In this document: piece after piece, positions 4,103 through 19,142 of the stretch
Layout of the letters: the number at the start of each line of letters is the position of its first letter
Numbering within the stretch: position 1 is the first letter of the stretch
Assembly (NCBI RefSeq): GCF_003231495.1
Contig: NZ_PQWO01000008.1
Location: forward strand, 120,001 to 152,000
Direction: 5' to 3'
Length of the DNA stretch: 32,000 nucleotides
Origin: Acaryochloris thomasi RCC1774
GTDB lineage: Bacteria; Cyanobacteriota; Cyanobacteriia; Thermosynechococcales; Thermosynechococcaceae
Notes under the pieces: model-generated
Seen by the model: only the letters and a program-made list of their open reading frames with translations
Told to the model about the DNA's origin: nothing
The model's database searches: none
Program-made: the position numbers and the translations under genes

Positions 4103-7100
4103 TCAAAGGTGAGACATATGCGCTATGTCTGATGCAGTTCTCTCAAGCTCTTCAAGACGAGTACGGGCGGCTTGTAAATCGGGAGACTCCAATCCCTCAG
4201 TAAATCGGTCGTAAATCTCTGACAAGAACTGGTGTGCGTCTTGAGCTTTGCCTTGGCTTTGCCATAATCGAGTTAATCCCACTGCGGCTCTTAATTCCAG
4301 CATCAGAGCATTCTGCGTATGAGAGAGATCTAAAGCTTGCTGGAAAAGACTCTCCGCCTCTTGTAGAGCTGTAGATAGACTTAATGAAAAAGAAAGCTCA
4401 CCAGCAACGCCTTCGGCTGTCATTGCTTCCGTCATTAGAATCTCAGCATTAAGACGATAAAGCTCTGGTTCCATATGGTGTTCTTGACGACGACTGGCCT
4501 CCTGCATCCCCTCATTCAAAATGTCGAGGGCTTCCTCTATGCGACCTGCTGTCCAGAAGGCTTCTGCCATCATCACCATAATGTGAGGCAAAGTGATGGA
4601 ACTCCCTGTCTTCCGAAATAGAACGACGCCTTCCTCAATTTCTTTGATGCCAGCATCAATTTTCCCCTGGATTGTCAGCGACCAACCGTGATAGATGGCA
4701 GCGACTGCAACCCACAACAAGAATCCCTCCTCCCGTGCACTTTTGAGCAAAGCTTCTGTGTTCTCTCGGACCCACTTAGAATCCTGTGCGTAGTGGTAGA
4801 AGAAGCAACTTGTCCCTAGAAGCAGGGCACCACTGGCGGGATGGCTCAATTCTGCTGATCGTTTAAATCCAGTCTGGATTTGCGCTTCAGCCTGTTCTGG
4901 ATATCCTTGCATCCACAGACTTCCTGCTAAAAAGATTCGGAACGCCAGAAAGGAAGCCATTTGAAAGGTGCGGATAATCTCCTGTTCGGTCTCTGGATCA
5001 TAGAGTGCAAGTCCTTGTTCTGCATGGGCTTGGGCCTGGGAAAAGTTGCCTTGGTAAAAGGCTGTATACCCAAGAGCATGGTGTGCCAGGATCGCTAGCT
5101 TGGGGTCACCAGAGGATGTTGCCCTTCGTTGAACATCACGGGCAGTGTTGAGGGCTTTATCAAAGTCACCTCGCATAAAGTAATTTGTCCACAATCCCCA
5201 GAGAGCAGTGGCAAGGGTCTCACTATTGCTTAAAGTCTGACTGAGGGTACGGATGCGATCGCAAGTTTGTTCCACCTCTGTTGCCGCCCATCCTCTCGTT
5301 GCCATATAAGCCGGTGCGAGATAAATTTGTAGCTCTAGCTCCCGCTGATCACGATCAGGTGTGTATGGCAGCTTCTGCAATAACGTCAATCCCTGAGTGA
5401 GGTGACTAATGGCCTCCACGCAGGCAGACCGAAGAACAGCTCTTTTGCCAGCCTGCATGTAGTAGAGAACTGCCGAGTCGTCCCGACCGGCCTCCTCATA
5501 ATGATGGGCCAATAATTCTAAACGCCCTTCAAGAGCATTCGGCAGCTGAGTTTCTAGCACCTCAGCAATATGGAGATGATAGCTTTGCCTACGACTTTTA
5601 AGTAAAGACTGGTAAGCCGCGTCCTGAATCAAAGCGTGCTTGAAGTGATACGACGCCTGAGGCGGTATTCCCTGCTGATAGAGCAAGCCAGCCTGAACCA
5701 ACTGCTCTAAGCCATGACGTAAAGCACCCAAATCCCAAGAGGACGCCGCTGCAATCAGCTCGTAGTTGAACTCGCGCCCAATTGTTGCCCCTAGTTGGGC
5801 AATCTCCTTAACCCGCGAGAGACGATCGAGCCGCGCAATCAGAGAATCCTGTAACGTTGCAGGAATAGCCAACAAAGAACGTTCTGAAACCTCAACTTCA
5901 CCGCTGTTTTCGCCCGGGAGGAAATTGAACTCTAGGACTGTTTTGGTCAGTTCTTCTAGATAAAGGGGGGTACCATCTGTCTTCGCCACAATTTGATCCA
6001 CCACCTTGCCCGGCAAAACTTTTGATCCAGCCATCGTGCCCACTAGAGTTCCTGCCTGTACGGAGGTTAAGGGCATCAGAGGGATAGAAACAAGGCGAAG
6101 GGAATTCTCCCACGACGGCGTGAATTCAGGCCGAAAGGTAAGCAGGATTAAGATAGAATGCTGTGCTCCTTTATCGATCAGGTGATTCAGCATATTCAAG
6201 GTGGAAGCATCCATCCAGTGCAGATCTTCAATCACCAGCAGGACAGGCTGTTGTGCAGCCCGCAACAATAGCACCTGCACCATCAGTTTTATTGTTTCCT
6301 GCTTCTGTCGCTCGGGGGTGAGAGCTAAGGGTTCATAACTAGGCTGAAAAGGAACCGAAAGCAGCGAGGCCACTAGAGGAACGCCCTGCTCTAAAGGCAG
6401 CCCATACTGGGTCAAAAACCCTTCAATTTTAGCGAGCTTTGCCTGCGTATCTTCCTCTCGCCCAAATCGGAGCACAACCTGCTCTAGCTGCTCAATAATC
6501 GAGTAAAAAGAGCTATTGCGATAGTAGGGTAAACCGCGAAGCTCTGAAAGCCATGCATTGGACTCATCTGCGACCTGTTCTTTCAGAGCCCACACCAAGC
6601 GAGATTTACCGATCCCTGCATCTCCCCCAAGCTCAACGATACGTGAGTGTCCACGTTTAGCTTGCGCCCAGCAGTCCAATAGAAGTGCCAACTCTTTGTC
6701 TCGACCCACCAGCGGAGACAAACCAGATTGTTCAGCCACATCAAGCCGACTTTTAGCCGTACTCTCATGCGTAACTTGGTAGGTACTAATAGGTTTAGAA
6801 ATTCCCTTCAGAATCGTTTCGCCCAGAAATTGGCACTCAAAGAAGCCCGCAATGAGTTGTTTCGTTGCCTTGCTAATCACCAACGTATTGGACTGAGCAA
6901 CCTCCTGCAGCCGAGCGGAGATATTAGGCGCTTCTCCCACGATCGCCATAGGCTCGCGTAAATCTCGGTTGCCCATTTCTCCCGCAACAACCAACCCAGT
7001 ATGAATACCGATCCGAACCGCTAATGTCGCTCCCCATCTATCCTCAAGCCGCCGATTTAACCGTTCAATCGCTTCCAGAATACCTAAGCCGCCTCGAACC

Positions 7101-7618
7101 GCGCGCTGAGCATCATCTTCATGGGCCTGAGGATAACCAAAATAAATTAAGAGTCCATCCCCCAAAAACTTAGCAATATGGCCCCCGAACAAAGCAGTTA
7201 CCTTACCAATCGAATCCTGGTAAGCCAGAAAGATCTCACGGAGATCTTCAGGATCAAATTGTTCAGACAGAGACGTTGAATTGACCATGTCACAAAACAT
7301 GACCGTAAGCTGGCGGCGCTCAGCAGCAGCACTTGGCGAACGCTCAATGGCTGAATAAAGATTCGCCGTCACCGGAACAGGCTGGAGCGACGGATGCACT
7401 TTTATCTCAGTCGCTCCAGAGCTATCGGCCTGTCCTTCCCAGATCAGCATGATGCCATCTTTATCCGCAGCAACCTCTAGAACCTGAACCAGCTCAAAGA
7501 CTAAATCCGCGAGCCAATCATCATCTAGATCAAACTGACGTTTGAGTGCCCGGTAGGAGATTCGTTCTCGACGCTGAAGGAGCGCAAGGGTCTGATCTAA
7601 TAATTCTTCAAAGGTCAT
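4103..7618 (-). CDS. Multidomain signalling protein: class III adenylate/guanylate cyclase domain + P-loop AAA/STAND ATPase + C-terminal TPR-like helical repeats
   Basis: 1171-aa ORF with an ATG start. Cyclase core at aa ~101-283 (LTVMFCDMVNST..., FLGDGLLIYFG, RIGIHTGLVVAGEMG). Walker A GGDAGIGKSRL at aa 331-341, Walker B-like LLVIEDLHWMD. The long C-terminal helical repeat region contains many A/L/Y/W-rich pairs. Confidence 0.85.
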   Translation of the reverse strand: MTFEELLDQTLALLQRRERISYRALKRQFDLDDDWLADLVFELVQVLEVAADKDGIMLIWEGQADSSGATEIKVHPSLQPVPVTANLYSAIERSPSAAAERRQLTVMFCDMVNSTSLSEQFDPEDLREIFLAYQDSIGKVTALFGGHIAKFLGDGLLIYFGYPQAHEDDAQRAVRGGLGILEAIERLNRRLEDRWGATLAVRIGIHTGLVVAGEMGNRDLREPMAIVGEAPNISARLQEVAQSNTLVISKATKQLIAGFFECQFLGETILKGISKPISTYQVTHESTAKSRLDVAEQSGLSPLVGRDKELALLLDCWAQAKRGHSRIVELGGDAGIGKSRLVWALKEQVADESNAWLSELRGLPYYRNSSFYSIIEQLEQVVLRFGREEDTQAKLAKIEGFLTQYGLPLEQGVPLVASLLSVPFQPSYEPLALTPERQKQETIKLMVQVLLLRAAQQPVLLVIEDLHWMDASTLNMLNHLIDKGAQHSILILLTFRPEFTPSWENSLRLVSIPLMPLTSVQAGTLVGTMAGSKVLPGKVVDQIVAKTDGTPLYLEELTKTVLEFNFLPGENSGEVEVSERSLLAIPATLQDSLIARLDRLSRVKEIAQLGATIGREFNYELIAAASSWDLGALRHGLEQLVQAGLLYQQGIPPQASYHFKHALIQDAAYQSLLKSRRQSYHLHIAEVLETQLPNALEGRLELLAHHYEEAGRDDSAVLYYMQAGKRAVLRSACVEAISHLTQGLTLLQKLPYTPDRDQRELELQIYLAPAYMATRGWAATEVEQTCDRIRTLSQTLSNSETLATALWGLWTNYFMRGDFDKALNTARDVQRRATSSGDPKLAILAHHALGYTAFYQGNFSQAQAHAEQGLALYDPETEQEIIRTFQMASFLAFRIFLAGSLWMQGYPEQAEAQIQTGFKRSAELSHPASGALLLGTSCFFYHYAQDSKWVRENTEALLKSAREEGFLLWVAVAAIYHGWSLTIQGKIDAGIKEIEEGVVLFRKTGSSITLPHIMVMMAEAFWTAGRIEEALDILNEGMQEASRRQEHHMEPELYRLNAEILMTEAMTAEGVAGELSFSLSLSTALQEAESLFQQALDLSHTQNALMLELRAAVGLTRLWQSQGKAQDAHQFLSEIYDRFTEGLESPDLQAARTRLEELERTASDIAHMSHL

Positions 7619-12460: not shown

Positions 12461-14203
12461 ATGCGGATTGAGTCGCTAAGCGTCAAAAACTTCAAAGGCT
12501 TTGAGGAGCGATCGTTTGAGTTCCCGCATAGCTTCACACTAGTTGTAGGTGAAAATGCTTCTGGTAAGACTTCGATACTAGAAGCAACCACAGTTGCCTT
12601 GCAAAATATGTTCACAAAACTGCAAGGTGTTAATGCTTTGTCTGATAGTGAATTTGGTATTTCTGAAGAGCAGGTGCAGATTCGGAAGGAAGTCTATGGA
12701 AATTCTATTCGCTTTGAGCCTCAGCACCCTTCTTGGGTAGATGCTACCTTTAGTCATTTAGGGGAAAAACTTCAAAGCTATAGCAGTTTTAATACTACAT
12801 CTAAGAATGAGTTCGATGTATATTTTAGCTATAACCACTCAGACAAAAAAATTGTTCATGCAATCGCTGAAGACTTAAGGAATAAAGGAGTTTCTGTATG
12901 GCTAGATGATTGGGAGATATTACCAGGAAGGCCATGGAAGCAGGCTATTAAAGGTGCAATAAAAACTACTAGAAGTGTTGCGGTTTGCATTGGAGAACGT
13001 AGTATTTTAGGATGGCAAGGGGAGGAGCTTCAGTTATTCATAGATGAGTTCTCAAGTCGGAACATACCTATTATTCCAATCTTGTTGCCAAGCGCTTCTG
13101 CAAAAGAAATTGATCTACCTTTATTTCTCAGGAACTTTGCTTGGGTAGATATGCGAAAAGAGGGATATACAACTGATATCCTGAGGCGAATTCATTTGGG
13201 TATCGTCGGTGAGCTAGACCTTAGAGAAAAGTTGCCATTAGCTGATTATCAGACTCAAAATGGAGAGGTTATCCCTTTAGCTGATATTTTTGAGCGAATA
13301 AGTCAGTTTCCCCGCATTCCAATGCCTGTCATCGCTTTCTATAACTCTAATCGTTTACCTCCGAATCAAAAAACTACCCTTTCAGTAAATCGTTCCAAAA
13401 CAGATCTATCCCGACGCTATGGCTATCAGGATTGTCTGAAGGGTAAATTAGCTATTCCAGACATTTTTTCTTGGTTGCGTGACGAACAGTTTTCTGGCTT
13501 GCAAGAAAATACTGAAAGCCTCTTGTTCCAAACAGTGACTTATGCGATGTGTTCATGCATTCCAGGAGCAACGAGCATAGAGTATAGCATTCGGCAGTAT
13601 GATCTGGTTGTTGAGTTTGATAATGGCGATATCAAGCCCTATGGAAGCCTAAGCGATGGTCAGCGCATTATGCTATCTCTTGTCGCTGATATTGCCTATC
13701 GTGCTGCCTGGATGAATCCCCACCTTGAAGATAAAGTGCTGCAGGAAACTGATGGTGTAATACTTATTGATGAACTTGATTTACATCTCCATCCAAAATG
13801 GCAGCGTCGTGTAGTTGACGACCTCAAGCGAACCTTTCCAAAAATTCAATTTATTGTCACCAGTCATTCCCCTTTTATCATTCAGTCTCTTGAGCCGGGA
13901 GAACTGATTGTCCTAGATGATGAACCGCAAATTGAATATGCTAATCGCGGCGTTGAAGAGATTGCCCGGTTTATCCAGGGAGTTGATCAACCTTATACTA
14001 GCCAGCGATATGTGGATCAAAAAGCAGCATCAAAACGTTATTTCTCCCTTCTCCGTGAAGGTCGTTCAGAAGATGACCCTGAACTACTGGAAGCGAAGCG
14101 AAAATTAGATGAGCTAACCGCTCATTACCCTGATAATCCTGCCTCCGATGCGTTTCTAGAAATACAGCGTCTAGCAGCACAGGGGAACAATCACAACGAA
14201 TGA
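12461..14203 (+). CDS. SMC/ABC-type (COG3950, AAA_15/AAA_21-like, PtuA-like) ATPase with an embedded TIR domain
   Basis: 580 aa. N-terminal MRIESLSVKNFKGF...LVVGENASGKTSILEA (Walker A, aa 30-37). TIR-like block at aa ~117-250. ABC signature-like SLSDGQR (aa 396-402). Walker B VILIDELDLHLHP (aa 432-444). H-loop FIVTSHSP (aa 464-471). Confidence 0.85.
   Translation: MRIESLSVKNFKGFEERSFEFPHSFTLVVGENASGKTSILEATTVALQNMFTKLQGVNALSDSEFGISEEQVQIRKEVYGNSIRFEPQHPSWVDATFSHLGEKLQSYSSFNTTSKNEFDVYFSYNHSDKKIVHAIAEDLRNKGVSVWLDDWEILPGRPWKQAIKGAIKTTRSVAVCIGERSILGWQGEELQLFIDEFSSRNIPIIPILLPSASAKEIDLPLFLRNFAWVDMRKEGYTTDILRRIHLGIVGELDLREKLPLADYQTQNGEVIPLADIFERISQFPRIPMPVIAFYNSNRLPPNQKTTLSVNRSKTDLSRRYGYQDCLKGKLAIPDIFSWLRDEQFSGLQENTESLLFQTVTYAMCSCIPGATSIEYSIRQYDLVVEFDNGDIKPYGSLSDGQRIMLSLVADIAYRAAWMNPHLEDKVLQETDGVILIDELDLHLHPKWQRRVVDDLKRTFPKIQFIVTSHSPFIIQSLEPGELIVLDDEPQIEYANRGVEEIARFIQGVDQPYTSQRYVDQKAASKRYFSLLREGRSEDDPELLEAKRKLDELTAHYPDNPASDAFLEIQRLAAQGNNHNE
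12809..13210 (+). other. TIR domain inserted within the ATPase (domain-level feature)
   Basis: FDVYFSYNHSDKKIVHAIAEDLRNKGVSVWLDDWEILPGRPWKQAIKGAIKTTRSVAVCIGERSILGWQGEELQLFI follows the TIR pattern F(D/I)xFxSYxxxD...G..V(W/F)xD......G......I...I..S...(V/I)......S.W...EL. The putative catalytic Glu is retained (E188/E189, codons 13022-13027). Confidence 0.8.
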
Positions 14204-14889
14204 GGCCCGTTGAACGAGGTGATGCCCCTCAAACCTTCAGTGACTATAGAGCAGCTAAACCATTCCTGGTCAACCGTTTGGGAGACTATTGTAGCTATTG
14301 TGAACGCCCCATCAAGACAAATCTGGCTGTTGAACACGTTCGCCCCAAAAATCTCTACCCTGAGCTACGAGAAGACTGGGGTAACTTCTTGTTGGGGTGT
14401 GTAAACTGCAACTCGACAAAAAGCGATAAGGATGTTTCTCGCGACAAAGTTCTACTGCCCGATCAGGACAACACGTTCTTGGCCTACGTCTATACCCGCG
14501 AAGGTCAGGTACTACCTAACCCTCAATTGGGTGACGTGCTTCAAAAAAGGGCTGAAGCAACGCTTGCATTGACGGGTCTGGATAAATTTCCAGATGAGTT
14601 TGATACTGATGCTTCGGGTTCCGCTGCATTGGAAAGATGGCAACAGCGATCGCGAGCGTGGCAGGATGCACAGAATTGCTTTCATGCACTCTCTCAAAAC
14701 GATTCAGAAGAGATACGCAAACTCATCATTGTTGCAGCCCGTAACACGGGTTTCTTTTCGGTATGGATGATCGTTTTCAAGAGTGATCCCATCATGCTTC
14801 AAGCCTTTATTCAAGAATTCCCTGGCACGTCACCCAAATGCTTTGACACAACTGGCAGTCCCATCAACCGTCCAGGCGGGCATCTCTAA
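14200..14889 (+). CDS. HNH endonuclease (PtuB / TIGR02646-like), Cys4 zinc type
   Basis: 229 aa. C31-x2-C34 ... E45-H46 ... N62 ... C67-x2-C70-N71..K74 (CSYCERPIKTNLAVEHVRPK...GNFLLGCVNCNSTKSDK). The start ATG 14200-14202 overlaps the upstream TGA 14201-14203. A purine-rich AGGGGA lies ~14 nt upstream. Confidence 0.85.
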   Translation: MRPVERGDAPQTFSDYRAAKPFLVNRLGDYCSYCERPIKTNLAVEHVRPKNLYPELREDWGNFLLGCVNCNSTKSDKDVSRDKVLLPDQDNTFLAYVYTREGQVLPNPQLGDVLQKRAEATLALTGLDKFPDEFDTDASGSAALERWQQRSRAWQDAQNCFHALSQNDSEEIRKLIIVAARNTGFFSVWMIVFKSDPIMLQAFIQEFPGTSPKCFDTTGSPINRPGGHL

Positions 14890-14927: not shown

Positions 14928-17900
14928 CTATCCCTCATGAATCAGGCGCAGCAGCTCATCGGTAGAGATCTTGCCGCTCATCTCTGCTCCTTCCAATAAA
15001 CTATCCGCCAGATCGCGTTTGTGCTGATGGAGATCGACGATTTGCTCTTCAATGGTGCCCTTAGCAACGAGGCGATAAATCGTTACCGGACGCTGTTGCC
15101 CAATGCGGTGTGCCCGATCTGATGCCTGATCTTCCACGGCTGGGTTCCACCAGGGGTCCATATGGATCACGTAATCAGCGGCGGTCAAATTTAGCCCGGT
15201 GCCCCCTGCTTTGAGGCTGATTAAAAAGACATCTCCCTCCCCGGCCTGGAAGGCATTGACGCGCTCCTGACGTTTTTTTGCGGGTGTACTGCCATCTAAA
15301 TATTGGTAGGCAATCTTTTGTTTGTCTAAATACTGTCGCAGAATTTGGAGATGATCCACAAACTGGCTGAATACAAGGGCTTTGTGATGGTTGGCCAGCA
15401 GCTCTGCTAAGGTTTCGCTGAATAGCTGCAGCTTGGCACTCGGAGGTGGAGCTTTGGGGACAACAAGCTGAGGATTGCAGCAGGCGCGACGCAGCTTCAT
15501 GATTTCAGCCAAAACCTGAAGATGCTTGGCTCCGGCTTCGGAATCGCTTTCGGTTAGCTTTGCGATCGCATCCCTCCTCAGCGCTTCATACAGCGCCATC
15601 TCTTCTTGACTCAGCTCCACCTGTAGCGTAATTTCCGTACGAGAGGGCAGCTCTTCTAAAACCTGATTTTTAGTTCGCCGCAACAAGAACGGCTGGATCA
15701 ACTTTTTTAAGCGATGGCGAGCCTGGTGATCCTGATATTTCTCAATGGGTGTAGCAAACCGTTGATTGAAGCGATCCAGCGATCCCAATAGACCCGGATT
15801 AATAAATCGAAAGAGATTCCATAGCTCCCCGAGATGATTCTCAATCGGCGTGCCCGTGGTCAGAATCTTGAACCCAGCCTGGAGATTCATGGCCGCTTGC
15901 GATCGCTTTGTCGCCATATTCTTGATCGCCTGGGCCTCGTCCAGAACAGTGGTTTGCCATTCGACCTTAGCCAGCATCTGAGCCACGTCTTCCTGCTGCA
16001 GAAGACCATAGCTACACACCAATAAATCAAAGGGCTGGAGCTGATCCAATAGCTGCTGTCGGTCACTGTTCCCAAACTGCAGCGGCTTCAGCGTAGGCGC
16101 AAACCGCTGGGCCTCGCTGAGCCAGTTCATCCCCACAGATGTAGGTGCAATCACTAACGTGGGTCCCTGGGGTGCACGAGTGAGAATCACCGCCAGCGCC
16201 TGTAGCGTCTTACCTAAGCCCATATCATCAGCCAAGCAAGCCCCGACGCCCCAGTGAGAGAGTCGCGCTAGCCACTCAAATCCTTCTTCTTGATAATCTC
16301 GCAGCTCTGCCTGCAGCGTTGAGGGAAGTTTCGGCTGAAATTTTTTGACATCCTTCAGTTTTTTGACGTGGGCTTTCCAATGCTTGTCTGCCTTGAGTTG
16401 GCCCACATCATCGACCATATCCTCAAGAGCCACTGCCGTCAGGGGGTGAAAGCGGAGGCCATCCCCCTGTGTTTCAGAGTAGGCCCGCAGCTCATCGAGG
16501 CGCTTGCGAAATTCCTGGGTCAGGGCCACAAACTGGCCGTCGCCAAGGGGGATAAAGCGGCTGGGGGTTTGCTCTAGCAGCTTCAGCAGTGCCTGCATGT
16601 CTAGCACCTCATCGTCAGCAAGCTGCAGTTCACCGCTAGCGGCAAACCAGTCCCGCTGACGCTTGATCTGAAGCTGAAACTGACCGACATCGGCTCGGTG
16701 GCTGACGCGCAGCTTCTCGCCCTCTGGCCACTCCAGGACGATATGGTCACCTAAATCCTGCAGCTCTAGCAATAGCTCTAGACAGTTCTCGGGCTCTTCT
16801 AATAGCCACTCACTCTCTTGGCCCTCGTGTCGAAGCAGCGTCGGGCAGGCCGATATCGCAGTCTTAGACAATTTCCGTTCTTGTTTCAAATCGCGAGTGG
16901 TTTGCAGTCGCCGATCGCCAATTTCAGCAATGACGGTTTCGCCACCGCTGCCGGGTCGATAGTAGGGGCCTCCTTCAGGGAACGGGCGTGAAAAAACCGC
17001 CACCTTGAGACCTTCTCCAGCGGGCAATAGGTGAACATGGGGCGTTGCTTGAGACGGCACCTCTGTCGCACTAGCCACGCCGCCGCCGATATCAGACTGG
17101 ACGGTGACCAGATTAGAGACGGCGTTAATGGCCGCGAGCACCTGCTCCTTCGCTCGTTCCGGCACTGTAAGGCGATTCTTCTGGCCCAGAATCGTGGCAA
17201 TTTGATGATGGTCTGCCTGAATCTTAATCACCTTAAGCCGCGTCGGGGTTTCTTTAATCACTACAATTTCGTCATTTGACTTAAAGTTTGGCGTTAGAGT
17301 CAGCGCTAGTTGACCCGCTTTTTCTTTTTGAATCAGCAGTTCAGGTTCCCCTTTAACGACCTCAATAGGGATGGTAGGGGTCTCTTCCCAGAAAACATAG
17401 GGATGGCCGATGAGAGTTGCGATCGCACACTCTGCAAACCGATACTCAGTTCCGCTGTGGTAGCCATAGGTGGAGTAGGTTTCAATTTGATTGCAAATCC
17501 GCAAATCCTGAGCAGAGAGGTACTCCAACTCACCCGACGGATTCTTATAGAGACGCTTCATGGCAATGGGACGTCCCTTACTCCAGCCTCCCTTTGCACT
17601 CAGCTTTTGCTCACGGGGCTGCAGGGACCAGTTTTTGCCATATAGAGTGATAAACCAAGCCATCCTAAAATCTGAGGCTACGGGAGAGACTGGCTCTTGA
17701 TGGAGCTTGGCCAACGCCTTGAGGCTCATCTCCCAAGGCTCCAGAGTGTGAATAATATTCACGAGCGGTTGAATGCCGCTGCCCTGTCGCAAAATCTCGG
17801 ATTGGGTCTCATAAGTGGCGTCAGGCTCTAGCTTGGCCAGCAGTGACGCCACCTCCATCGCCACCCAGTGATATCCCGATCGCATGGCCTGTTGATAGAG

Positions 17901-19142
17901 GGGCATCAGTATGCGGGGCAGTTTTTTCTGGGCACGATCGGCATTGACCCAGTACTGACACAGCGAGCCAAAGAGAATATCTAGGCTATGGTGTCCCTCG
18001 TAGGGATGGATGTAGGCTCCTAGTAGAGAGGCTTTTGATGATAAATCACCCTGCTGGAGTTGTAGAAATTGATTGAGCCAGACATAGGTGGTTCGCAGCC
18101 AGTAGTGCTTGGGCTGACGAACCATCTGCTGGGTATAGCTCTGGGCTTCCTGGAGTCGTTCTGGAGAGCCGTCCTGGAGCAGCGCCAGAATAAAGAATAA
18201 ACCACTGATGTTGCCAAAGTAGGCCTTACGTTTCTTTTTGACTGCCCGGAGGTGGGTCAGCGCCCGAGTGTAGTGGGCAATGGCCTTCGAGGTGTCTCCC
18301 TGTAAGAACGCCAGCCAGCCCCAATAGGTGGCTGCGCTGTCTTCTGAAAGCTGAGCGAGTGACTCCAGCACCGCAGGAACCTCTTCGACATCGCCACGCA
18401 ACAGAAGCTGTTCCGCCAGCATCAGCTTTAAAGCCGCGGAACAGCGAGAATTCTCAGCCACAGACTCTTCCAGAAGCATCTCAAAGGCTTCTTCGCAGTT
18501 TGCCAACGTCAAGACAGAATGGTCGAAAATACCGTAGAGGCCAAGCTCATAGAAGTTCGGAGACAGCGATTGGAACCATTCAGCATCAAAGGGATTACTG
18601 CAAATCGTAGCGATCACCTCTGCCTGAGTCAGTTTGTCCTGAGGGTATTTAGCTTGGTGGTAGTCTTTGATCTGCGCTTCAAAAGAAGCGAAGTCCTGCC
18701 GATAAAAGTCAATACGGGCCTCACGAAGGAATTGTGCTTCACTCTTAAATCGCCGAGGAGCATTTTGATGAGGGTAGTAAATTGGGATTGCCTTTTGGAC
18801 CACCCGGGCGTAGACAGCAAACCGCCCTGCCTTCACAGCATCACGAGTTGCGATCTCTGCAATGAATGGATGACACTGTGGTCCCTGACCACGCTCTTGC
18901 AACAATAATCCTGCATCGAGCAGCCCATCAATATACGGCTTCAGATTTTTACTAATAAAGGGGGCTTGATCAAGATCTCGAATCCCCAGCTTGTTAAGGC
19001 ACTCCATGATGGTGGTGCGATTAACCGGTTCATAAACAACGGCAAGAAGCTGCACAATCTCTTGTGCAACAGCAGGGCAGGCATTGTAAAGATCTTGAAG
19101 CTGACTACGTTGCTTATCGATCTTGAGATCGGAATCGAACAT
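14928..19142 (-). CDS. SNF2/RapA-family DEAD-like helicase with a large N-terminal helical extension and a SNF2-associated middle region
   Basis: 1404 aa with an ATG start. Helicase motifs [15 protein letters not shown] (I), [10 protein letters not shown] (II), [18 protein letters not shown] (III), KALVFSQF (IV), [39 protein letters not shown] (V-VI). The N-terminal ~480 aa is helical/TPR-like with no motif I recognise. Confidence 0.9.
   Translation of the reverse strand: [1404 protein letters not shown]

Follow-up and report, generated by a model that had tools for sequence, protein, structure and literature searches.

The Locus and Its Two Genes

The DNA analysed here is a stretch of 32,000 nucleotides from the marine cyanobacterium Acaryochloris thomasi RCC1774 (contig NZ_PQWO01000008.1, positions 120,001 to 152,000, forward strand), called the window below, and all coordinates refer to it. 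It contains a two-gene cassette of the anti-phage system Septu, in which the ATPase PtuA carries a TIR domain within its ATP-binding cassette (ABC) head and is followed by its partner, the HNH nuclease PtuB. Both open reading frames lie on the forward strand, the first (ptuA-TIR) at 12461–14203 with 580 amino acids and the second (ptuB) at 14200–14889 with 229 amino acids. They share the four nucleotides ATGA at 14200–14203, an overlap of start and stop codons pointing to translational coupling. An earlier note, made from the sequence alone, had described these frames as a PtuA/PtuB pair with an embedded TIR domain. Coordinates, lengths and order of the frames were as it had them, all motifs it quoted were found at the residues given in both genes, and its assignment to Septu was borne out by the profile and structure searches described in the following.

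The PADLOC model PtuA PDLC00278 matched the 580 amino acid protein in two stretches with an expectation value (E) of 1.9e-111 and 371 bits, the second stretch covering residues 278–575. Among the best 25 PADLOC models listed for this protein 24 were PtuA models, the exception being ATPase_I-A, the ATPase of type I-A retrons. For the 229 amino acid protein the model PtuB PDLC00315 yielded an E of 4.7e-82, with positions 1–223 of the 227-position model covered, and Pfam HNH an E of 1.3e-7. Pfam AAA_15, AAA_21 and SMC_N scored above their cut-offs on the ATPase, with matches split to both sides of the TIR domain. When the full-length AlphaFold2 (AF2) model was compared to the Protein Data Bank (PDB) with Foldseek, the best 50 matches were PtuA chains throughout, from Escherichia coli Septu and from the retrons Ec78 and Ec83, at a probability of 1.00 and a target-normalised template modelling score of 0.45–0.80, the best being 8eea_D with an E of 7e-25. 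A profile alignment to 8ee4 gave 4.8e-70 over residues 1–372. The profile E-values for the identity of the ATPase and of the TIR domain are far beyond chance. The best NCBIfam matches were the PtuA (200 bits, cut-off 500) and PtuB (44 bits, cut-off 150) of retron Ec78; these scores and that of TIGR02646 stayed below the cut-offs, as expected because the models were built on retron-type proteins. The cassette is a stand-alone Septu (PtuA-PtuB) and shows every testable feature of membership in this system; its anatomy and its identity are hardly in doubt. In the NCBI protein database an entry from the same strain, 100% identical to the 580 amino acid product, is labelled 'DNA replication and repair protein RecF', a mis-annotation which is due to the shared SMC_N/Walker A region.

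The ATPase is built of two parts on either side of the TIR domain. Its N-lobe (residues 1–110, 12461–12790) comprises strands beta1 and beta2, the Walker A helix, an antiparallel 'helix-grip' sheet and a final hairpin at residues 91–110, as delimited by AF2 (predicted local distance difference test score, pLDDT, 87–97), by the strands assigned with DSSP, by the homolog alignment and by the correspondence to residues 1 to about 106 of 8ee4. It contains Walker A GENASGKTS (residues 30–38, 12548–12574), of which G30, N32, G35 and K36 are invariant in the homolog alignment. The C-terminal two-thirds (residues 273–580, 13277–14200), mostly modelled with a pLDDT above 90 and containing the PADLOC stretch 278–575, include the Q-loop strand and a helical region. 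These are followed by the ABC signature LSDGQ with the canonical Gln401 (residues 397–401, 13649–13663), the Walker B and D-loop ILIDELDLHLHP with D437 and E438 (residues 434–445, 13760–13795) and the H-loop TSHS with H469 (residues 467–470, 13859–13870). These motifs, like Walker A, were invariant in the alignment with the homologs, and this part as a whole is 66% identical to the TIR-less relatives P0002 and P0003. At its end lies a C-terminal helical domain (residues 498–574, 13952–14182) with AF2-predicted helices at 498–505, 515–532, 540–553 and 560–574. In solved complexes the C-terminal domain of PtuA clamps PtuB (PMC12673091, PMC13376987), and residues 498–574, which are homologous to those of the relatives, are the putative PtuB-binding helices. 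PtuB itself carries a compact HNH core (residues 31–74, 14290–14421) with C31xxC34, E45-H46, C67xxC70-N71 and K74, all of them invariant in the PtuB alignment.

The Inserted TIR Domain

The TIR domain occupies residues 116–252 (12806–13216). It was recognised by Pfam TIR_2, which matched residues 120–237 with an E of 4.5e-24 and a score of 85.7 bits (cut-off 28), and by its homologs, a set of 80 TIR proteins with 37–46% identity to it. In the full-length AF2 model, where the ATPase core mostly reached a pLDDT above 90, the TIR part was modelled with 42–73 only, because the alignment contained no more than five TIR sequences; the orientation of the TIR domain towards the ATPase is not reliably given by this model. 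A combined MAFFT alignment of PtuA and TIR sequences was discarded, since it placed FDVFLSHNSKDK of the TIR domain onto FTLVVGENASGK of Walker A, and the TIR domain was modelled alone instead. With the 80 TIR homologs as input, residues 108–270 yielded a mean pLDDT of 83.9, and the best 50 Foldseek matches of this model in the PDB were all TIR domains, including those of MyD88, SARM1, AbTir, BtTir, TIR-STING and SPARTA. SARM1, AbTir and SPARTA are NADases. By profile, model and structure search alike, a TIR fold was found where it had been proposed, at residues 117–250 inside the ATPase. The size argument that went with this proposal, an ATPase of normal length once the TIR domain is subtracted, agrees with the median of 435 amino acids (mostly 421–485) among the 119 best PtuA homologs.

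Glutamate 189 (codon 13025–13027), the second glutamate of 'GWQGEEL', holds the catalytic-glutamate position of the TIR domain in the arrangement W185-x3-E189. It aligned to the glutamates of AbTIR 'DWTNYEL', Cat1 'DWCWDEL' and PdTIR 'EWPQKEL', that of AbTIR being the catalytic E208. Both W185 and E189 are invariant across the 81 sequences of the TIR clade. The TIR fold is complete and its glutamate at the catalytic position is kept, as a predicted site.

Position of the Insertion

In the alignment with the nearest TIR-less relatives the PtuA sequence breaks off after the N-lobe hairpin (residues about 102–110) and resumes at the helix preceding the 'PVIAFY' strand (about residue 273). The homologs fill this interval with a short stretch that varies in length. 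In the profile alignment to the solved chains the break falls at approximately residues 108–120 of E. coli PtuA and 164–173 of Ec78 PtuA, so that the insertion directly follows the position equivalent to R163 of Ec78. This arginine contacts the multicopy single-stranded DNA (msDNA) on the central groove, and the neighbouring 'm loop', which is longer in stand-alone PtuA, is said to obstruct DNA binding (PMC12819146). By these alignments the TIR domain is located on the groove-facing, DNA-facing 'm-loop' side of the N-lobe, and from this position TIR domains of adjacent subunits could plausibly meet at the groove. The coiled-coil insertion point of SMC and Rad50 proteins was considered as the site and ruled out, since the insert maps to the N-lobe (Ec78 about 164–173); the coiled-coil domain of Ec78 comprises residues 255–310 (PMC12673091).

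From the alphaE helix of the TIR domain a low-confidence linker (residues 253–272, 13217–13276; pLDDT below 50 for residues 245–264) leads to the resumed PtuA helix. Neither flanking repeats nor a scar of the insertion could be made out convincingly. At the C-terminal junction a 12-nucleotide direct repeat was seen at 13235–13246 and 13274–13285, 39 nucleotides apart and with 11 of the 12 bases alike. Its copies encode LPLAD and IPLAD, and the second begins the resumed PtuA helix (compare 'LADIW' of Ec78). It may be microhomology from the insertion event, or chance.

The close TIR-less homolog P0003 bears at the same loop an unrelated, internally repetitive insert of about 70 amino acids (LVDRGTERNPTVPTIEE...LVDRGTVRTPTEV; columns 137–245, approximately, of alignment A1), from which the site appears to be a hotspot for insertions.

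Relatives and Origin of the Fusion

The nearest homologs, P0002 and P0005 (loci L001 and L002), likewise belong to a ptuA-ptuB operon, the genes of which also overlap by four nucleotides, and have no TIR domain. In identity to the present PtuB their nucleases reach 61% and 59%, which tracks the 53–57% identity of the PtuA cores. The shared operon geometry and the PtuB identities indicate that the cassettes are orthologous and that the TIR domain is the sole gain. As in the window, these cassettes are solo insertions amid housekeeping genes, which is common for Septu (10.1101/2024.01.29.577857). P0002 (L001, 6001–7266) has a lysine for the catalytic Walker B glutamate ('LIDKLDLHLHP' versus 'LIDELDLHLHP') and may, judged from this exchange, bind ATP without hydrolysing it. 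A gene of the phage integrase family is found about 2.5 kb downstream of its cassette.

Other proteins combining PtuA with a TIR domain were sought in several ways. None of the 119 best PtuA homologs contains a TIR domain. The exceptions in length among them are two terminal fusions, P0105 (770 amino acids) with N-terminal leucine-rich repeats according to Pfam and P0066 (890 amino acids) with N-terminal NACHT/AAA-type NTPase domains in precomputed Pfam annotation, which imply that PtuA accepts sensor-like additions elsewhere too. From the other side, the 154 nearest TIR relatives contained no PtuA sequence, their extra stretches being tandem TIR domains. A phmmer search with residues 1–330 against 1.84 billion cluster representatives gave TIR-only proteins for the best 150 matches, as verified locally, and the query's own cluster was not among them; this set holds representatives at 50%, behind which fusions may hide if the representative is TIR-less. 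Word-indexed protein searches with the TIR segment and with a chimeric profile of TIR and PtuA motifs also returned TIR-only proteins and missed the query's own protein (P0001). With tblastn 131 plasmid and 8 phage records with PtuA-like genes were obtained, none of them covering at least 80% of the query, and in species-representative genomes 80 loci among the matches listed were all TIR-less by length, A. thomasi itself not being among these 80. A TIR profile found no match within ±3 kb in any of 83 related loci, and a metagenome scan with the TIR and junction segment gave 62 loci, which reach no more than 41% identity in the TIR core and contain no PtuA-like sequence.

As the query's own protein, genome or cluster was not returned in several of these searches, the negatives mean that no second fusion was found, not that none exists. 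So far the fusion of PtuA with a TIR domain is a singleton, one gene in one genome. The searchable literature contained no description of PtuA or Septu combined with a TIR domain, in line with the earlier note, to which such a variant was not known. A PtuB-like frame was present in 75 of the 83 related loci.

The base composition gives some indication of the history of the cassette. The GC content at third codon positions (GC3) is 0.32–0.47 in the cassette and about 0.57 in the flanking genes (DUF2330, SNF2), which suggests that the cassette is foreign and horizontally acquired. The GC3 of the TIR segment, 0.32, is near to that of the rest of ptuA (0.35–0.38) and unlike that of the flanks, which suggests that the fusion is older than the cassette's arrival or arrived with it and is not a very recent local event.

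Comparison with Known Systems

With stand-alone Septu of E. coli (8EE4, 8EE7, 8EEA, 8SUX) the cassette has in common the two-gene operon, an ATPase of about 430 amino acids when the insert is subtracted, the C-terminal helical domain, the HNH partner of about 229 amino acids, and the lack of both an N-terminal extension and a helical flap. The literature on this system includes Doron 2018 and Li et al. 2024; a 6:2 assembly of PtuA and PtuB and a nuclease inhibited by ATP count among its features. The cassette differs in that a TIR domain of 137 amino acids plus a linker of about 20 takes the place of the loop at approximately residues 108–120, and in that the sequence identity to the solved PtuA is only about 19%. 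A further difference is the glutamine of the signature (LSDGQR), a leucine in E. coli Septu PtuA. The latter protein has no ATPase activity, whereas Ec78 PtuA, which has the glutamine, hydrolyses ATP (PMC12819146).

Type I-A retron PtuAB (Retron-Eco7/Ec78, Ec83; 9KJX, 9NNB, 9E8Z, 9VH1) shares the homologous ATPase core, the HNH partner and the logic of a PtuB sequestered by PtuA oligomers until a trigger arrives, and the msDNA-contacting groove loop around R163 of Ec78 is the site which bears the TIR domain in the present PtuA. The features of retron-type PtuA are absent: the alignment starts only at about residue 65–68 of Ec78, so there is no N-terminal extension, and residues of about 247–303 of Ec78 have no counterpart. 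In Ec78 this extension and this helical flap bind reverse transcriptase as well as msDNA (PMC12819146, PMC12673091).

TIR effectors mounted on sensors, such as SPARTA TIR-APAZ/Ago, TIR-SAVED of CBASS, Cat1 of type III CRISPR, ThsB of Thoeris and AbTir, share with the inserted domain the TIR fold and the glutamate position of WxxxE, and also the tethering of the TIR domain to a sensor that oligomerises, by which such enzymes are usually gated. In these proteins the TIR domain is terminal or a separate protein, whereas here it is internal, within an ABC ATPase head. Scanning the neighbours with Pfam and PADLOC revealed no Thoeris-like partner (ThsA with SIR2/SLOG, Macro or another signal reader). 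PARIS AriAB, Gabija GajAB, Menshen NsnBC and HEC-01 to HEC-03 have in common with Septu an ABC ATPase homodimer or oligomer regulating a bound nuclease, and no TIR insert is reported for them in the searchable literature. Defence ABC ATPases are known to diversify by inserts and terminal fusions (10.1101/2024.01.29.577857). What sets the present protein apart from all described Septu/PtuA proteins is the internal effector-type domain; the cassette varies a system already known and does not establish another kind.

Possible Mechanism and Alternative Explanations

In genome surveys Septu ranks with the commoner defence systems of bacteria, and structural work has only begun to reveal how it is activated. 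The best overall explanation of the locus, to which a probability of roughly 0.5 is assigned, is a horizontally acquired stand-alone Septu with a TIR domain in an N-lobe loop, the PtuA scaffold of which would gate the TIR domain in addition to the nuclease. Within this explanation the dual-effector mechanism proper, a PtuA scaffold controlling TIR–TIR contacts beside DNA nicking, is plausible and has to be regarded as tentative. According to published work (PMC13376987, PMC12819146, PMC12065111) ATP- or ADP-bound PtuA oligomers hold PtuB quiescent via the C-terminal helices, DNA cleavage by PtuAB is inhibited at high ATP or ADP, and a smaller complex, PtuA2:PtuB, is regarded as the nuclease in its active form; the mechanism is treated further in PMC12673091. 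As in these characterised Septu and retron PtuAB pairs, either a trigger from the phage or falling ATP would release an active, DNA-nicking PtuA2:PtuB complex. The PtuA scaffold would position one TIR domain per subunit at its groove-facing side, and a change of PtuA conformation or oligomeric state driven by infection could bring the TIR domains into pairs, which would cleave NAD+ to deplete it or to form a signal. The TIR domain would then act as a second growth-arresting effector beside the HNH nuclease.

Several observations weigh against this explanation, the main mechanistic tension being one of direction. Assembly is what normally activates TIR NADases; for PtuAB the reported switch is disassembly (PMC13376987). 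A bolder reading is a feed-forward sequence by which one ATP-gated scaffold would control two chemically unrelated effectors: on phage sensing the groove-facing TIR domains would pair and burn NAD+, the energy charge would collapse, ATP/ADP would fall, and the nucleotide inhibition of the HNH nuclease would be lifted, so that a small first signal would end in irreversible DNA damage. Little probability is given to this sequence; if it were true, the TIR domain would be the first immune effector domain acting within an ABC ATPase head.

A second group of contrary observations concerns the TIR domain itself. From the positions conserved in its clade at 85% or more it has kept 44 of 65 (68%); for the clade the median is 95% and the 5th percentile 86%, and the insert ranks second lowest of the 81 sequences. 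The clade motif 'GxGPW' ahead of the catalytic helix reads 'SILGW' in the insert, and the nearest relative is 48% identical, while members of the clade typically have a neighbour at 75%. By sequence the inserted TIR is an isolated long branch, which could fit an unsampled donor lineage or subclade as well as altered selection after the insertion. In addition, no defence island was apparent at the locus when its neighbours were scanned with Pfam and PADLOC, and a fusion known as a singleton provides no evidence of selection for this architecture.

Of the alternatives the one given most weight is that the TIR domain, which has diverged around the active-site loop, is not catalytic. It would then be an interaction, sensor or oligomerisation module that alters PtuA assembly or its trigger, for instance an auto-inhibitory plug of the groove or a surface for binding the trigger, with PtuB as the sole effector. 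The domain is inserted in the m loop region; this loop has a greater length in stand-alone PtuA as it is and, according to PMC12819146, obstructs DNA binding. This region is variable in length among the homologs, with the unrelated insert of P0003 as an example, and the PtuA family takes sensor-like fusions such as the leucine-rich repeats of P0105. Many TIR domains are scaffolds and not enzymes, such as those of MyD88 and the TLRs, which are the top Foldseek matches. Against such a role speak the glutamate at the catalytic position and the tryptophan preceding it, which have been kept, and the invariance of this glutamate in the donor clade, as is expected of enzymatic bacterial TIR domains. 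A non-catalytic TIR domain is on balance considered unlikely.

Somewhat less probable still is an evolutionary accident, the in-frame insertion of a TIR domain into a permissive loop of ptuA in one lineage, neutral or mildly deleterious and leaving an ordinary or a decaying Septu. It would account for a fusion that remained a singleton in all searches, for a TIR domain on a long branch with fewer conserved positions kept, for a solo cassette in a housekeeping context and for promoter and terminator signals not above chance. Both reading frames are nevertheless intact over 2.4 kb with all catalytic motifs and the coupling overlap preserved, and the TIR domain is still modelled confidently as a whole domain. 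Its composition is equilibrated with the remainder of the gene, from which it must have persisted for some time without stop codons or frameshifts.

An artefact of assembly or sequencing which fused a fragment of a TIR gene to ptuA is very improbable. Only one genome carries the fusion, which such an artefact would explain, but the frame is kept at both junctions and PtuA resumes exactly where the homologs continue; the contig is 226 kb long and comes from an isolate genome, the composition is uniform along the gene, and no repeats flank the insert which could mislead an assembler. Least credible of all is a role as effectors of a type I-A retron (Ec78/Ec83-like), suggested by the best NCBIfam matches being the Ec78 PtuA and PtuB models, since the scores are far under the cut-offs (200 versus 500 and 44 versus 150 bits), no reverse transcriptase domain occurs in the neighbours scanned and no Rfam family reaches its gathering threshold in the 32 kb window, and the protein begins at about residue 65 of Ec78 PtuA without N-terminal extension or helical flap, all of which agrees with the exclusion of a retron in the earlier note.

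For a stand-alone Septu with a TIR domain gated by PtuA, the consequences depend on the activity of the domain. If it is active, the loss of NAD+ would be a built-in reporter of the conformational state of PtuA, and ABC ATPase heads could host effectors internally, beyond terminal fusions, which would widen the targets of defence-finding programs. If it is inactive, the variant would still mark a permissive insertion site usable for PtuA engineering. As long as neither siblings nor a phenotype have emerged, its importance beyond this case is limited; the arrangement is unusual, has clear boundaries and lends itself to experiments, with a second effector domain that can be assayed independently.

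Neighbouring Genes

The genes around the cassette have mainly housekeeping and signalling functions, namely DUF2330, a ferric-reductase-like membrane protein, an amine oxidase, PsaL, RibD, Ser/Thr kinases, an ABC1 kinase and PP2C. No repeats flanking the cassette and no tRNA or integrase were seen in the window, and a scan for promoters and terminators gave counts at chance level.

Convergent with ptuB and 38 bp apart from it, a gene on the reverse strand (14928–19142) encodes an SNF2 helicase of 1404 amino acids, which matched the PADLOC models DpdE with an E of 4.4e-195 near full length and ZorD with 3.6e-117. Embedding of the cassette in a defined system or defence island (including Hma) by way of this gene was considered and rejected, because its vicinity lacks further genes of Dpd or Zorya; the protein is perhaps a defence-type helicase standing alone, or else an SNF2 protein with a housekeeping function. 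At 4103–7618, also on the reverse strand, a protein of 1171 amino acids is encoded which combines, in this order, a class III nucleotidyl cyclase domain (PycC-like, E 6e-20), an AAA_16 STAND NTPase and TPR repeats. Its architecture is one of signalling or possibly of immunity.

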